Notes under the pieces: generated by a model
What the model was told of the DNA's origin: nothing
The model's database searches: none
What the model saw: the letters and a program-made list of their open reading frames with translations, nothing else
Assembly (NCBI RefSeq): GCF_000015585.1
Contig: NC_008789.1
Location: forward strand, 630,001-662,000
Origin: Halorhodospira halophila SL1
Lineage (GTDB): Bacteria; Pseudomonadota; Gammaproteobacteria; Nitrococcales; Halorhodospiraceae
Direction: 5' to 3'
Length of the DNA: 32,000 nucleotides
Program-made: the position numbers and the translations under genes
Part shown: positions 1,714-26,793 of the stretch, piece after piece
Numbering within the stretch: the stretch's first letter is position 1
Layout of the letters: each line of letters starts with the position of its first letter

Positions 1714-1968
1714 GAGGGAGCCGGTGGGCAGGCGGTCGACCGTGCTTGCGCGATGCGGCTGACGAAGCCCGGGGGCAGTTCCGTGAAACCGTGGGCGGTG
1801 GGGGCGTGACAACGGCGCTGACGAGCGCACCCCTTCGGGGTCCCCTGCGCTGCTCGGTGCGCTCAATGCGCCGTTGTCACGCCCCCACCGCCCACGGCCG
1901 GAGCACCCACCGGCTCTGGAGCGTTCCGGCACGCAAGCACGGTCGACCGCCTGCCCACCGGCTCCCTC
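1714..1968 (+). repeat. Long hairpin-forming intergenic repeat, copy E1 (mini-core variant)
   Basis: Perfect 37-bp inverted repeat 1714-1750 / 1932-1968. Perfect 28-bp second stem 1791-1818 / 1868-1895. A 9-bp inner stem 1823-1831 / 1856-1864 encloses ggggtcccctgcgctgctcgg, a block shared with E2 and E3. No ORF with coding character. Confidence 0.85.
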
Positions 1969-6958: not shown

Positions 6959-8641
6959 TCAGTTGTCCTGATTGCCCTTCATCTGCTCCTTGAGCAGATC
7001 GCCGAGCTGCGTGGTGCCGGCACTTGGCCCCGGACGGGCGTGCTCCTGCACGGCCACCTGCTCCTCCTCGGCCTCCTGGGCACGCAGGGAGAGGTTGACG
7101 GTCCGGTTGCGACGATCGACGCCGACGAACTTGGCCTCCAGATCCTGGCCCTCCTCGAGGACCGAACGGGCGTCCTCGACGCGCTCCTTGGCCAGGTCGG
7201 AGGCGCGGATGTAGCCCTCGACCCCGCCGCCGACGTCCAGCGTGGCGCCCTTGGCCTCGACGGAGAGGACCTTGGCGTTGACGGTGGCGCCCTTCTGGTG
7301 ATCAGCCAGCCACTGGCTCAGCGGATCCTGCTCGAGCTGCTTGATGCCCAGAGAGATGCGCTCGCGCTCGGGATCGATGGAGAGGACAACGGTCTCGACC
7401 TCCTCGCCCTTGCGGTAGTTGCGCACCGCCTCCTCGCCGGCCTCGTCCCAGGACAGGTCGGAGAGGTGGACCAGGCCGTCGATACCGCCCTCGAGGCCAA
7501 CGAAGATGCCGAAGTCGGTGATCGACTTGATCTGGCCGACCACCCGGTCCCCCTTGGCGTACTTGGCGGCGAACTCATCCCAGGGGTTCGGCTGGCACTG
7601 CTTCATGCCCAGGGAGATGCGGCGGCGCTCCTCGTCGATGTCGAGGATCATCACCTCGACGTCGTCGCCAACGGCCACCAGCTTGGCCGGGTTGACGTTC
7701 TTGTTGGTCCAGTCCATCTCGGAGACGTGGACCAGGCCCTCGACACCCTCTTCGATCTCGACGAAGCAGCCGTACTCGGTGATGTTGGTGACCTTGCCCG
7801 GGACGCGCGCACCCTCGGGGTAGCGCTGGGCGATGGCCTCCCACGGGTCGGCGCCGAGCTGCTTGAGACCGAGGGAGACGCGGTTGCGCTCGCGGTCGAA
7901 CTTGAGGACTTTGACCTCGATCTCCTGGCCGACTTCCACCACCTCGGAGGGGTTCTTGACGCGCCGCCAGGCCATGTCGGTGATGTGCAGCAGCCCGTCG
8001 ATCCCGCCGAGGTCGACGAAGGCGCCGTAGTCGGTCAGGTTCTTGACGATACCCTTGAGGGTCTCGCCCTCCTGCAGCTTCTCGAGCAGCGCCTCGCGCT
8101 CGGCGCTGTACTCCTCCTCGACCACCGCGCGGCGGGAGACCACCACGTTGTTGCGACGGGCGTCGAGCTTGATGACCTTGAACTCGAGGTCCTTGCCTTC
8201 CAGGTAGGTGGTGTCGCGCACCGGGCGGATGTCCACCAGGGATCCCGGCAGGAAGGCGCGGATGTGGCCCAGATCGACGGTGAAGCCGCCCTTGACCTTG
8301 CCGCTGATCTGACCGGACACGGTCTCGCTGTTCTCGTAGGCCTGCTCGAGGGCGCGCCAGGCGTAGGCGCGCTTGGCCCGCTCGCGGGAGAGCCGCGTCT
8401 CGCCGAAGCCGTCCTCGACGGTGTCGAGGGCCACCTCGACCTCGTCGCCGACGCTCACCTCTAGGTTGCCGGCCTCGTCATAGAACTGCGAGACAGGGAT
8501 CACCGCCTCGGACTTGAGACCGGCGTTGACGATCACGTCCTCGTTGTCGATCCCCATGACCTTCGCCGTAACAATGGCGCCAGGCCGCATATCGGTGTTC
8601 GCAAGGCTCTCCTCAAAGAGTTCCGCAAAGCTTTCGGTCAT
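6959..8641 (-). CDS. rpsA: 30S ribosomal protein S1 (six S1 domains)
   Basis: 560 aa beginning [13 protein letters not shown], with repeated S1 motifs (G.V...T.(Y/F)G.FV.L..G..GL.H.S). Confidence 0.97.
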
Positions 8642-15135: not shown

Positions 15136-16211
15136 CCGTTTCGCCTCTCGAAATCGGCCATGAACTCGACGAGCCGGTCCACGCCGGCCTCCGGCATGGC
15201 ATTGTAGATTGAGGCCCGCATGCCACCCACCGAGCGGTGCCCCTTGAGCGTGGTCAGACCGGCGGCCTCGGCCTCCTCGAGGAAGAGCTTGTCGAGGCCG
15301 TCATCGGCCAGGACAAAGGGCACGTTCATCCACGAGCGCGCCTGCGGATCCACCGGGTTCGAGTAGAACGGCGAGGCGTCGATAGCGTCGTAGAGCTTCT
15401 GCGCCTTGCGGTGGTTGATCTCGGCCATGGCCTCGAGACCGCCGAGGTCCTTCAGCCACTGGAACACCAGCCCGGCGATGTAGAGCGGATACGTAGCGGG
15501 GGTGTTGAGCATGGAGTCGGCGTCGACCTGCTGCTGGTAGTCCCAGACCGTGGGCGTCTGCGGCATCGCCTCGCCGAGCAGGTCCTCGCGGACGATCACC
15601 AGGGTCACGCCGGCCGGGCCGATGTTCTTCTGCGCCCCGGCGTAGATCAGCCCGTAGCGGCTGACGTCGATCGGCCGCGACAGCAGCGTCGAGGACATGT
15701 CCGCCACCAGCGGCTTGTCGCCGACGTCGGGCAGCCAGTGGAACTCCACGCCGCTGATGGTCTCGTTGGGGGTGAAGTGGACGTAGGCGGCGTCGTCGGA
15801 GAGCTGCCACTGCGACTGCGGCGGCACGTGCATCATGTCCGGCTCGCCGGAGGCGGCAACGTTGACCTCGCAGAACTTCTTCGCCTCGGCGATGGCCTTC
15901 TTCGACCACTGACCGGTGTAGATGTAGTCGGCGCGCTTGCCGCCACGCAGCAGGTTCATGGGGATGGCCGAGAACTGTCCGGTGGCCCCGCCCTGCAGGA
16001 ACAGGACCTTGTAGTTGTCCGGGATCTGCAGCAACGCCCGCAGATCGGCCTCGGCCTTCTCGGCGATGGAGACGTATGCCTTGCCACGGTGGCTCATCTC
16101 CATGACCGACATGCCGGTGCCCTGCCAATCGAGCATCTCCTCGGCGGCCTGGCGCATCACCGCCTCGGGGAGCATGGCCGGGCCGGCACTGAAGTTGAAG
16201 ACTCTACTCAT
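15132..16211 (-). CDS. serC: Phosphoserine aminotransferase
   Basis: Start ATG 16209-16211 ([15 protein letters not shown]) with GAGGA 8 nt upstream. Contains [20 protein letters not shown] and [12 protein letters not shown]. Confidence 0.95.
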
Positions 16212-16286
16212 GCGGTGATCCTCGGTTGCGAAACACGAATACCCGGGCCCCGGCAGCGACACCGCCGGCCGTCGACCCCTGACTGC

Positions 16287-18857
<2,571 letters not shown>

Positions 18858-18894
18858 GCGCTCTTCTCAAGACTCTCCTGGGGAAAAGGCCGAT

Positions 18895-18905
18895 GGTATC
18901 ATACC
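18895..18905. promoter_or_regulatory. Palindrome GGTATCATACC in the gyrA / nhaP2 divergent region, giving -10-like hexamers on both strands (TATCAT on plus, TATGAT on minus)
   Basis: Seen in the 81-bp divergent intergenic region 18858-18938. I found no convincing -35 elements. Confidence 0.2.
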
Positions 18906-18938
18906 GCCGCCCGACCGGGAGCGCAGGGAGCCGTCCGC

Positions 18939-20666
18939 TTGGACTTGACCAACCAACTGATCCTGTTCGGCGCCGCTCTACTGCTGGTGAGCGTGCTCGC
19001 CAGCGTGGTCTCCGATCGAGTCGGCGCGCCGATGCTGCTGGTCTTCCTGGGCATCGGCATGCTCCTCGGCGAGGAGGGGCTGTTCGGGATCGACTTCGAC
19101 GACATCCAGGCCGCCCACCTCATCGGCAGCCTGGCGCTGGCGATCATCCTCTTCGACGGCGGGCTGCGCACCCAGACCTCGACATTCCGCGTAGCGCTCA
19201 AACCAGCGCTGACCCTCGCCACCGTCGGCGTGATCATCACCGCCGCTATCACCGGCGGGGTGCTGGCCTGGGTCTTCGACCTCGACTGGAAACAGGGGCT
19301 GCTCCTCGGCGCCATTGTCGGCTCCACCGACGCCGCGGCAGTCTTCGGGCTGCTCCACGCCCGCGGCCTGGAGCTCAAACAACGCGTGGCCGCCACGCTG
19401 GAGATCGAATCGGGCTCCAACGACCCGATGGCGATCTTCCTGACCATCATGCTGGTGGAGATCCTGGTCCAGCAGCCAGACCTGCTCGCCGCGGCGGCGG
19501 CCCTGGAGTTTGCCCAGCAGCTCGGCCTGGGCGCGGCCTTCGGCGCCCTGGGCGGCCTGGCCCTGGCCGGGCTGATCAACCGCATCAACCTCACTCCCGG
19601 GCTCTACCCGCTGCTCGCCCTCGGCGGCGGCCTGGCCATCTTCGGCGCCGCGGCAGTCCTCGGCGGCAGCGGCTTCCTGGCCGTCTACCTCGCCGGGCTG
19701 ATCGTTGGCAACCGCCGCCTGCAGGCGGCGCAGAACATCCGCCGCTTCCACGACGGCTTCGCCTGGCTGGCGCAGATCACCATGTTCGTGGTGCTCGGCC
19801 TGCTGGTCACCCCCTCGGAACTACTCCCCGTCGCCGCCCAGGGCCTGCTGGCGGCCGCGGTCCTGATCCTGGTCGCCCGCCCGGTGGCGGTCTTCGCCTG
19901 CCTGGCGCCGTTCCGTTTCCCGTGGCGCGAGCAGCTGTTCATCTCGTGGGTGGGGCTGCGCGGCGCCGTGCCGATCATCCTCGGGCTGTTCCCGCTGCTG
20001 GCCGGGATCGATCAGGCAGACCTGTTCTTCAATGTGGCCTTCTTCGTGGTGCTGGTGTCGCTGGTCGTCCAGGGCTGGACCATCGCCCCGGCAGCCCGGC
20101 TGCTGGGCCTTGAGGTCCCGCCGGATACCGGCGCATCCCAGCGGCAGGTGATCGACGTGCCGCAGCAGACCGACTATGCGTTCATCGCCTACCGGATCAC
20201 CGAGACCTCACCGACCCTCTACGAGCCGGTCAGCCGGCTCAACCTGCCGCCCTCGGCCCAGGCGGTGGCGCTATTCCGCAGCGGTGAGGCGCTGCGCCAT
20301 CCGCAGCGCGAGGTGCTGCGTCCCCGGGACTACCTCTACCTGCTCGCCCTGCCCCGGGACATTGCCGACCTGGATCGCCTCTTCGTTGCCCCCAGCGGGC
20401 CGGCGTATCTTGAGGAGCAGCGCTTCTTTGGCGAGTTCACCCTGGATGGGGCGGCGCGATTGGGGGATATTGCCAGCGCCTACGGCATTACCATGCCGAG
20501 CGGTGCCCAGCCCGAGCAGTCCCTGAGTGATTACCTGCTGTGGATCTTTAACAACCGGGCGGTGGTCGGCGACCGGGTGCGAATCGACAACCTGCAGTTC
20601 ACCATCCGGGAGATCCAGGAGGGGCGCATCGCCAAGGTGGGCATGCGCATCGGACAACGGGGCTGA
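18939..20666 (+). CDS. nhaP2: K+/H+ antiporter of the NhaP2/CvrA type (CPA1 transporter domain plus C-terminal TrkA-C/RCK_C domain)
   Basis: Only the last 575 codons of the 1809-aa track ORF look like a protein: 12-13 hydrophobic helices (GAPMLLVFLGIGMLLGEEG, LAIILFDGGLRT, ESGSNDPMAIF), then a soluble TrkA-C-like tail. A TTG start at 18939 is proposed (gggag 8 nt upstream); the TTG at 18945 is an alternative. Confidence 0.85.
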   Translation: MDLTNQLILFGAALLLVSVLASVVSDRVGAPMLLVFLGIGMLLGEEGLFGIDFDDIQAAHLIGSLALAIILFDGGLRTQTSTFRVALKPALTLATVGVIITAAITGGVLAWVFDLDWKQGLLLGAIVGSTDAAAVFGLLHARGLELKQRVAATLEIESGSNDPMAIFLTIMLVEILVQQPDLLAAAAALEFAQQLGLGAAFGALGGLALAGLINRINLTPGLYPLLALGGGLAIFGAAAVLGGSGFLAVYLAGLIVGNRRLQAAQNIRRFHDGFAWLAQITMFVVLGLLVTPSELLPVAAQGLLAAAVLILVARPVAVFACLAPFRFPWREQLFISWVGLRGAVPIILGLFPLLAGIDQADLFFNVAFFVVLVSLVVQGWTIAPAARLLGLEVPPDTGASQRQVIDVPQQTDYAFIAYRITETSPTLYEPVSRLNLPPSAQAVALFRSGEALRHPQREVLRPRDYLYLLALPRDIADLDRLFVAPSGPAYLEEQRFFGEFTLDGAARLGDIASAYGITMPSGAQPEQSLSDYLLWIFNNRAVVGDRVRIDNLQFTIREIQEGRIAKVGMRIGQRG

Positions 20667-20692: not shown

Positions 20693-20939
20693 CCCGGAAG
20701 CGGCCCCGCACCCGCCGGGGGGTGATCGGGCTCGCCGAACGCGCCCCGGCGGGGTCCCCTGCGCTGCTTGCCCGCGCAGGGCCGCGCGCAAAGGAACGGC
20801 GCTGGAGCGCCGTTCTGCGCTGCGCGCTGACCAGCGCGAACCAGGAAAGGTTCGCGCTGGCCCCCTGCTTGGGCTGCGCTGCTCGGCGCGTTCGGAATGC
20901 GCCCGATCACCCCCCGGCGGGTGCGGGGCCGCTTCCGGG
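20693..20939 (+). repeat. Long hairpin-forming intergenic repeat, copy E2 (full core)
   Basis: Perfect 39-bp inverted repeat 20693-20731 / 20901-20939. An 11-bp inner stem 20735-20745 / 20885-20895. The core has internal hairpins at 20794-20815 (10-bp stem) and 20831-20860 (12-bp stem, loop aggaaa). Direct repeats of ctgcgctgct lie at 20759-20768 and 20874-20883. Confidence 0.9.
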
Positions 20940-25684: not shown

Positions 25685-25687
25685 CCC

Positions 25688-25904
25688 CCGGCCGCAGGCC
25701 CCGGGCCGGATCTTTGCGGACGCGCCGAGCAGCACAGCCCAAGCAGGGGGCCAGCGCGAACCTTTCCTGGTTCGCGCTCTGGTCAGCGCGCAGCGCAGAA
25801 CGGCGCACCAGCGCCGTTCCTTTGCGCGCGGCCCTGCGCGGGCGAACAGCACAGGGGACCCCGCAGGGGCGCGTCCGCCGATCCGGCCCGGGGCCTGCGG
25901 CCGG
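25688..25904 (-). repeat. Long hairpin-forming intergenic repeat, copy E3 (full core, inverted relative to E2)
   Basis: Perfect 25-bp inverted repeat 25688-25712 / 25880-25904. A 10-bp inner stem 25717-25726 / 25868-25877. By my manual alignment, the reverse complement of 25717-25877 aligns to E2 20735-20895 with about 8 substitutions and one 2-nt indel. Confidence 0.9.
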
Positions 25905-26064
25905 AGGGCGGCTGCTCGCGTTACCCACGAGGCCCGCTGGCAGCGCTTGCCTGCCGGGCGGCTCTCACCCCTTCTCCCCTGCATGGGCAGCAGGTTGCGA
26001 AACCGGTAAAGTAGATGCAGCAAATGCGACCCCGTCGGCCACCACAGACCGCGAGAGCAGGCCC

Positions 26065-26646: not shown

Positions 26647-26793
26647 GGACGAGCGCCGCTGTCCCGGAGGGCTCGATGGACCGCCCATTCCCCGGTGTTC
26701 GGCCCCGGGCCCCTCCCGGCCTGCCTTGCTCGCCACCGGAGCGCTGGGTAAGGTACGGCGTTTCCCGTCGTTCACCACCATCAGGGGATAATC

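Follow-up and report, generated by a model that had tools for sequence, protein, structure and literature searches.

Palindromic repeat elements with a conserved core and locus-specific arms in Halorhodospira halophila and other Gamma- and Betaproteobacteria

Intergenic repeats of bacteria usually have conserved ends and a variable middle. In this study, we analysed a stretch of 32,000 nt of Halorhodospira halophila SL1 (NC_008789.1, 630,001-662,000; referred to as the window, whose positions serve as coordinates below), which contains three hairpins, E1, E2 and E3, of a family with the reverse arrangement. The locus raises the question of how the core of such an element can be conserved when its two arms are specific to each copy and are at the same time perfect complements of one another. 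An initial annotation had offered three explanations: a structured RNA module selected only for the pairing of its outer helix, a mobile core that inserts into or creates local inverted duplications, and cruciform-forming DNA kept palindromic by intra-element repair. The last of these was the best supported in our comparisons. We consider it probable, with moderate confidence, that the elements are palindromic repeats maintained at the DNA level, in which arms of local sequence are kept identical by arm-to-arm copying on either side of a conserved core.

Copy-specific arms that change in concert

E1 is flanked by putA and cysK, which converge on it, E2 by a Na+/H+ exchanger gene and mtnA, likewise convergent, and E3 by a squalene/phytoene-synthase-family gene and an HD-domain gene (Table 1). 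They are the only long perfect hairpins of the window. Their predicted folds were rods with z-scores of -14.2, -9.9 and -15.4 against dinucleotide shuffles, and a 19-mer common to the hairpins occurred 3 times where 0.12 occurrences were expected; the hairpins are far above chance expectation. The perfect arms of 39 bp in E2 and 25 bp in E3 were confirmed as initially annotated, and a 28-nt version of the E3 arms (25685-25712 with 25880-25907) was 96% complementary, with one mismatch. In E1 the outer arms of 37 bp stood as described, and the inner arms, given as 28 bp, proved to be 30 bp and perfect. The arms of E1, E2 and E3 were unrelated to one another. The cores of E2 and E3 matched in opposite orientation in two stretches, one of 110 nt (92%) and one of 65 nt (95%), and their alignment gave the same counts as the initial one, 8 substitutions and one 2-nt indel, at 90% identity. 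E1 had also been described as a hairpin with this core, of which it retains only a 49-nt remnant. The interior of E2 and of E3 is bracketed by a 10-nt direct repeat, CTGYGCTGYT, of which E1 has a single copy, and the orthologous putA-cysK locus of Halorhodospira sp. 9621 (L102 4094-4257) has a full-length core. E1 is therefore a copy with an internal deletion between the direct repeats, and slippage between them would have removed its interior.

Orthologous loci were compared to follow the arms over time. The E2 locus is carried by metagenome contigs L082, L078 and L069, the E3 locus by L099 and the E1 locus by L102. Across 16 orthologous comparisons, which included Burkholderiaceae loci, 144 of the 177 arm differences were mirrored in the opposite arm, 26 affected a single arm and 7 were of other kinds. 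The differences of the E2 arms from L082 and L069 were mirrored between the left and the right arm. The orthologous elements L022+ and L020-, with arms of 107 and 112 bp, showed 26 mirrored and 2 single differences over 113 columns, and each had one internal mismatch. Orthologous arms diverged by 18-40%, compared with 26-33% at the third codon positions of flanking genes (window against L082/L069). The two arms of a copy therefore change together, and they do so without constraint, at a rate close to neutral. Since selection on single pairs of a 100-bp duplex is implausible and would slow the evolution of the arms, we infer that sequence is copied between them.

In the proposed mechanism, one arm would repeatedly be copied from the other at the DNA level, and mismatches would thereby be corrected. 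The likely process is either intramolecular template switching, with fold-back synthesis at the hairpin as the DNA is replicated, or recombination of one arm with the other. For Proteobacteria, correction of inverted repeats by template switching has already been proposed (PMC5941160). Copying that runs past the old boundary would lengthen the palindrome and overwrite the adjacent DNA with the mirror of the opposite flank. The same arm-copying process would invert whatever lies between the arms.

The segment between the arms was inverted between close relatives at three loci, E3/L099, E1/L102 and L094/L075. In L099, the E3 element was inverted relative to the upstream gene as shown by blastn, and the HD-domain gene was inverted separately. 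Between E1 and L102, the whole segment between the outer arms was inverted. Between L094 and L075, the spacers from outer to inner arm were swapped and inverted and the core kept its orientation, which requires two nested inversions. A site-specific recombinase that flips the core between the arms to regulate neighbouring genes, as in an inverton, would also invert exactly this segment. However, the arms carried no conserved recombinase site, no invertase gene was present among the open reading frames (ORFs) of the window, and no promoter-like site was found in or near the core by scanning. Moreover, the flips were seen between species or populations and not within one, and most copies are flanked by convergent gene ends, a setting in which a switchable promoter would be of little use. 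We therefore rejected the inverton, which is very unlikely, and return to arm copying as the source of the flips.

Two further comparisons bear on the history of the loci. In L099 (740-830), the HD-domain gene is inverted, and its stop codon is followed by the same 39 nt as in the window, which there abut the arm of the E3 element. The solo arm-like sequence at 26692-26724 occupies exactly the place of the element's arm in L099; it was probably left behind when the HD-gene segment of about 0.8 kb was inverted through the arms. The E2 site was empty in more distant relatives that share the gene order, where the intergenic gaps measured 24 nt (L104) and 48 nt (L106). The 247-nt E2 structure would thus be a gain, or would have been lost cleanly in the L104 and L106 lineages. 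The cysK locus of a more distant Halorhodospira metagenome-assembled genome (MAG), L103, was not syntenic with the E1 locus.

Copies of the element lie mostly between convergent gene ends, directly after stop codons, and in several cases the palindrome includes the gene ends themselves. In L068, both convergent genes end in ..EPA*, on mirrored GAGCCCGCCTGA inside the arms. The E1 palindrome extends at 86% into both of its genes, so that putA ends in ..GEDDEA* and cysK in ..GLDDEA*. As the CysK family natively ends in ..FEGLD/E, the G-L-D codons of cysK are native to the family and form part of the E1 palindrome. A PutA homolog with a solved structure has 3 residues past the conserved ..NAALLA, and PutA of H. 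halophila has 7. In L025, a transporter gene has its final six codons and its stop codon within a 78-bp arm, and in L070 both stop codons lie within the arms. The gaps from stop codon to arm were often equal on the two sides (-12/-12, -3/-3, 9/7, 21/20 and 74/71). Of the initial suggestion that a core inserts into or creates local inverted duplications, these mirrored gene ends support the creating part.

Core conservation and distribution of the family

The core is about 165 nt long, GC-rich and non-coding. In the predicted fold, a basal stem bears a small CCCC/GGGG hairpin and a longer stem within which more hairpins lie; CTGCGCTGCTCGG occurs twice in direct orientation, once on either side of an internal loop, and the basal stem is GAGCGCGCC/GGCGCGCTC in most copies. 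Over the 47 predicted pairs, 96.9% of the cells in the alignment were paired and 16 pairs had changed on both sides, values for pairing and covariation that were reached by none of 500 shuffles. Variation at these pairs nearly always replaced one Watson-Crick pair by another. Between the window and L082/L069, the core diverged by 4-6.5%, against the 26-33% at third codon positions. Orthologous cores were 94-96% identical, the paralogs E2 and E3 90%, and the E1-lineage core was only 68% identical to that of E2. Because orthologous cores are closer than paralogous ones, the E copies are old residents, each core being selected in place. On this comparative evidence the core is under purifying selection, and it would be conserved for a function of the host or of the element itself. 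In one copy (L068 3180-3200), the P5 loop is TTCCCC when read along the strand of the core, in reverse complement to the GGNAAA that is usual; it is GGGGAA on the plus strand of the locus, where the core is inverted. Here the 6-nt loop is inverted between its 11-bp stem arms, and the stem and the remaining core are unflipped.

The initial annotation spoke of a three-copy family, which proved far too small: about 40 copies were found in genomes and about 20 in metagenomes, in Gamma- and Betaproteobacteria. An exact-motif scan with GGGGTCCCCTGYGCTGYT, over one genome per species, gave 64 loci, of which about 40 share extended similarity and were taken as real copies. The hosts include an Ectothiorhodospiraceae MAG with 5 copies, several Burkholderiaceae MAGs including Zeimonas, and Inhella, Niveibacterium, Sulfuricella, Sulfurimicrobium and Gallionellaceae. 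In metagenomes, a scan with the hairpin GCGCGAACCNGNNAAGGTTCGCGC yielded about 20 further copies, which are of the Halorhodospira/Ectothiorhodospiraceae type and stem for the most part from soda lakes. A hidden Markov model built for nhmmer from 16 cores of this type matched cores of the Burkholderiaceae and Inhella types along their whole length (E values of 1e-7 to 1e-11). Judged by these matches, E1-E3 are members of a repeat family that is widespread in Gamma- and Betaproteobacteria, including Burkholderiales and Nitrosomonadales.

This family is apparently undescribed so far. At the gathering score, Rfam gave no match for the window and 18 related loci; up to an E value of 10, the best scores for E2 and one Burkholderiaceae copy were 19-23 bits against cut-offs of 70-88, which is chance level. 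No blastn match to either core type was found among 72,556 plasmids, and a 16-mer scan of viral contigs gave 3 chance matches without surrounding similarity. A full-text literature search found no match to diagnostic sequence strings of the element, and a keyword search returned general work on inverted repeats only, including a large survey of inverted repeats that does not mention these taxa. Thus the core matched no known repeat or Rfam family, and the arm and core comparisons show that the arms cannot be taken for conserved termini, nor the three loci for local duplicates of one another.

In the Halorhodospira, Ectothiorhodospiraceae and Burkholderiaceae types, all copies have a conserved core and near-perfect, locus-specific arms of 25-112 bp. 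Arms of non-orthologous Halorhodospira/Ectothiorhodospiraceae copies had no significant similarity to each other. A likeness between the arms of L060 and L070 that was seen by eye was unsupported in a shuffle test and was dropped, as was the claim that whole arms of the Halorhodospira type travel with the element. In Inhella and relatives (L023, L026, L038, L044, L048, L063), the elements resemble miniature inverted-repeat transposable elements (MITEs): they are 600-870 bp long with conserved termini, (A)GAGCCCGCCGGG, contain two diverged inverted cores and central short repeats of the CAGCC(G/A)AA type, and occur in several near-identical copies per genome. The related elements of Sulfuricella are likewise larger and MITE-like, with two diverged inverted cores and conserved termini. 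In four loci of Burkholderiales (L019, L037, L058, L067), a second conserved non-coding module (CCACGAGCG, TGCTGCGCGGTGGGCGGTACCCGGTGG, GGCGAGAAGCGCAGC) lies about 150-330 nt downstream of the core; the loci L019 and L067 gave no Rfam match at the gathering score. The elements often occurred as head-to-head pairs a few hundred bases apart, each element with unrelated arms of its own, as at L018 2113-2664, L066 3957-4490, L080 12524-13100 and L022 210-893.

Short-read contigs often end in the core or the arms (L021, L073, L078, L080, L081, L085, L086, L107), and the L107 contig spans exactly E3 to E2. All contigs returned for the MtnA protein of the window likewise stopped at E2 and E3. Because contigs end inside them, the elements break assemblies. 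Such breaks within the core might suggest that the structures are assembly artefacts, or the three window loci could be local duplicates of one another. However, the same elements occurred at the same loci in independent assemblies of an isolate, MAGs and metagenomes, and orthologous cores are closer than those of E2 and E3, the E1-lineage core being more distant still. By these comparisons, the artefact or local-duplication explanation is already refuted and has a negligible probability.

Several observations weigh against arm-to-arm copying or leave part of the data outside it, and two of them concern strand. On the GGGGTCCCC strand, arm mismatches comprised 12 A.C and 1 G.T (e.g. L006, L008, L020, L022, L059, L066, L068), a bias that a strand-blind DNA process does not predict. 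The core was co-directional with the sole abutting gene at about 8 loci against 2, a weak bias that is not significant. Together with the selection on the core, this orientation bias hints at an RNA-level or strand-specific role. These features would fit a structured RNA module, in which the core is a functional RNA (e.g. a small RNA derived from a 3' untranslated region) and the arms are a processing stalk, comparable to the stalks on either side of ribosomal RNAs, that is cut by RNase III and selected for pairing only. Its position directly after stop codons fits, the core is conserved far below neutral divergence and covaries strongly, and the strand-biased mismatches suggest that one single strand matters. 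However, the mismatch and orientation biases imply opposite strands, and therefore neither is decisive. The arms also contain hardly any G-U pairs, and even those of 107-112 bp are essentially perfect, although selection per base pair would be negligible at that length; their mirrored changes occur faster than compensatory evolution under selection allows. In addition, the core is flipped relative to its neighbours at three loci, and there was no Rfam match, promoter or U-tract. An RNA module, which the data do not require, thus draws support from the core and from the weak orientation bias, and the arms and the flips speak against it; we regard it as rather unlikely.

A second group of observations against arm copying concerns the origin of the arms. 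The Burkholderiaceae-type arms have outer (ACGTCGAGGCG) and inner parts that are conserved between loci, so part of the arm travels with the element; these arms include ACGTCGAGG, which is not a REP unit. The empty E2 sites are too diverged to trace the arms to ancestral local sequence. Moreover, arm-to-arm copying is deduced from patterns between species. The conserved arm parts could favour a conventional MITE, whose long terminal inverted repeats arrived with the element and drifted between copies, with a transposase encoded elsewhere. The elements are multi-copy, non-coding and patchy across Beta- and Gammaproteobacteria, those of Inhella and Sulfuricella are MITE-like, and both filled and empty E2 sites exist. 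However, the arms of different Halorhodospira/Ectothiorhodospiraceae loci are not similar. No direct target-site duplication was found at the arm ends, where the flanks instead continue the palindrome, and no transposase is encoded in the window. The arms, at 25-112 bp, include native gene ends, which cannot have come with the element, and drift alone does not explain mirrored changes. A classical MITE was thus rejected for the Halorhodospira/Ectothiorhodospiraceae type, which has neither conserved termini nor target-site duplications, and we consider this explanation quite unlikely. The initial description of the anatomy, in which the core is conserved and each copy has self-complementary arms of its own, opposite to the pattern of a MITE, held.

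What the element does in the cell is more speculative. As it directly follows stop codons, mostly between convergent genes, the element is probably a hairpin at the 3' end of transcripts, either a terminator or a processing or stability signal, and its conserved core probably binds a factor. A GC-rich hairpin is present, but no U-tract follows either arm and a scan found no terminator-like site at E2 or E3, so an intrinsic terminator was rejected; with no U-tract or promoter found, the terminator role is a guess, which also counts against our reading. In a second and tentative view, which we think unlikely, the core would be a novel form of selfish DNA, a "palindrome seeder" that spreads and persists by provoking fold-back (snap-back) DNA synthesis. 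Its target would thereby be duplicated in inverted and not in direct orientation, and the duplications would be kept perfect; the seeder would also flip and would alter the final codons and the stop codons of the genes next to it. Such a seeder may rely on an enzyme specific for hairpins or single strands; if this enzyme acted on one strand, the strand bias of the mismatches would be explained.

Features and gene neighbours in the window

All substantial ORFs of the window were housekeeping genes, namely putA, cysK, pyrF, lapB, rpsA, cmk, aroA, pheA, serC, gyrA, the Na+/H+ exchanger gene, mtnA, scpAB, trpS and others. The initial remark that the window has no transposase, RAYT or integrase gene was borne out when all major ORFs were checked, and no invertase gene was found among them. 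The positions of the elements and of their parts are listed in Table 1.

Table 1. Positions of E1, E2, E3 and associated sequences in the window
Feature	Position	Strand	Remark
E1 degenerate outermost palindrome, in last putA codons	1687-1707	+	pairs with 1978-1998, 21 nt, 86%
E1 outer left arm, 37 nt	1714-1750	+	perfect complement of 1932-1968
E1 inner left arm, 30 nt	1789-1818	+	100% complementary to 1868-1897
E1 short core, 49 nt	1819-1867	+	left end of core joined straight to right end
E1 short-core parts	basal stem 1823-1831 with 1856-1864; CCCC-TTC-GGGG hairpin; one CTGCGCTGCT at 1845-1854	+	
E1 inner right arm, 30 nt	1868-1897	+	100% complementary to 1789-1818
E1 outer right arm, 37 nt	1932-1968	+	perfect complement of 1714-1750
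Mirror of 1687-1707, in last cysK codons	1978-1998	-	21 nt, 86% complementary
E2 left arm, 39 nt	20693-20731	+	100% complementary to 20901-20939
E2 core, 169 nt between arms	20732-20900	+	nhmmer match 20736-20897, E=3e-42; fold, alignment, covariation
E2 basal stem P1	20737-20745 with 20885-20893	+	
E2 CCCC/GGGG hairpin	20744-20754	+	
E2 direct repeat CTGCGCTGCT	20759-20768 and 20874-20883	+	
E2 stem P3	20770-20781 with 20863-20874	+	
E2 internal hairpin region	20782-20827	+	
E2 hairpin P5	20831-20860	+	
E2 right arm, 39 nt	20901-20939	+	end lies 2 nt before stop codon of convergent mtnA
E3 arm adjoining squalene/phytoene-synthase-family gene	25688-25712	-	begins 3 nt past stop of gene; perfect 25-bp complement of 25880-25904
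E3 core, 167 nt	25713-25879	-	nhmmer match 25877-25714, minus strand, E=1e-39; orientation opposite to E2
E3 second arm	25880-25904	-	perfect 25-bp complement of 25688-25712
Solo arm-like sequence GGTGTTCGGCCCCGGGCCCCTCCCGGCC	26692-26724	+	past stop codon of HD-domain gene

The cores of E2 and E3, 90% identical, are inverted repeats spaced 4.9 kb apart, and they bracket a block with mtnA, amidohydrolase, methyltransferase, HAD hydrolase and SQS/PSY-family genes. Recombination between E2 and E3 could invert this block; the relatives L082 and L099 do not have such an inversion. The 1809-aa ORF at 15237-20666 (+) is a high-GC artefact that overlaps the real gyrA on the minus strand (16287-18857), and the Na+/H+ exchanger gene is just its last 600 or so codons. 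A 261-nt periodic direct repeat at 7333-7930, within the minus-strand gene 6959-8641, reflects the S1 domains that recur in ribosomal protein S1.

Relation to known palindromes and significance

Several known systems share features with this family. Like REP, BIME and REPIN sequences, the elements are non-coding, GC-rich hairpin repeats in intergenic regions, mostly past genes or between convergent genes, and often nested or paired in inverted orientation. However, REPs are 20-40 nt long, with a conserved stem, a GTAG/CGTC head and a variable loop or spacer, whereas the element here has a conserved 165-nt centre, locus-specific, perfectly matched stems of up to 112 bp and varying arm ends, and no RAYT gene (Y1 transposase) was seen in the window. 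REP identity was rejected on account of this conserved centre, in place of a conserved stem, and of the varying ends of Halorhodospira-type arms. Correia elements (CREE/NEMIS), ERIC and other bacterial MITEs are also 150-250 bp long, form long hairpins, lie at gene ends and are plausible RNase III substrates or terminators. They differ in having conserved terminal inverted repeats and target-site duplications, neither of which was found in the element here.

Integron attC sites are likewise imperfect palindromes whose structure is better conserved than their sequence, but they have R''/R' sites (RYYYAAC/GTTRRRY), form cassette arrays and depend on an integrase. The attC reading was rejected, as the basal stem here is mostly GAGCGCGCC/GGCGCGCTC, the copies are scattered among housekeeping genes and no integrase is encoded in the window. 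The hairpin termini of parvoviruses, such as the inverted terminal repeats of adeno-associated virus, offer no more than an analogy, having a T- or Y-shaped tip on a long stem and flip and flop orientations; these viral hairpins terminate linear genomes of single-stranded DNA and are substrates of an HUH Rep protein, and neither such a protein nor a linear replicon is in evidence here. The correction of quasipalindromes and the conversion of palindrome arms, as in the human Y chromosome and chloroplast inverted repeats, also show mirrored changes, a passage from imperfect to perfect repeats and inversion of the spacer. These are generic processes on arbitrary repeats, whereas here they are tied to a conserved multi-copy core. 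The conserved core appears to nucleate the arm copying and the flips.

Taken as comparative data, these elements are an unusually clean natural record of how palindromes behave in bacteria, with perfect, drifting stems of 25-112 bp, flip-flop, nesting and growth. Through growth of the palindrome, a pair of convergent genes would come to share mirrored codons at the C-terminus, together with the stop codon. In practical terms, the elements break short-read assemblies and can mislead the annotation of gene ends. Should the core truly nucleate these events, template switching and palindrome maintenance could be studied with a defined, clonable sequence. A core that diverges by 4-6% where synonymous sites diverge by about 30% suggests that there is a function to be found in these little-studied taxa, namely Halorhodospira, the Ectothiorhodospiraceae of soda lakes, and several Burkholderiales and Nitrosomonadales.

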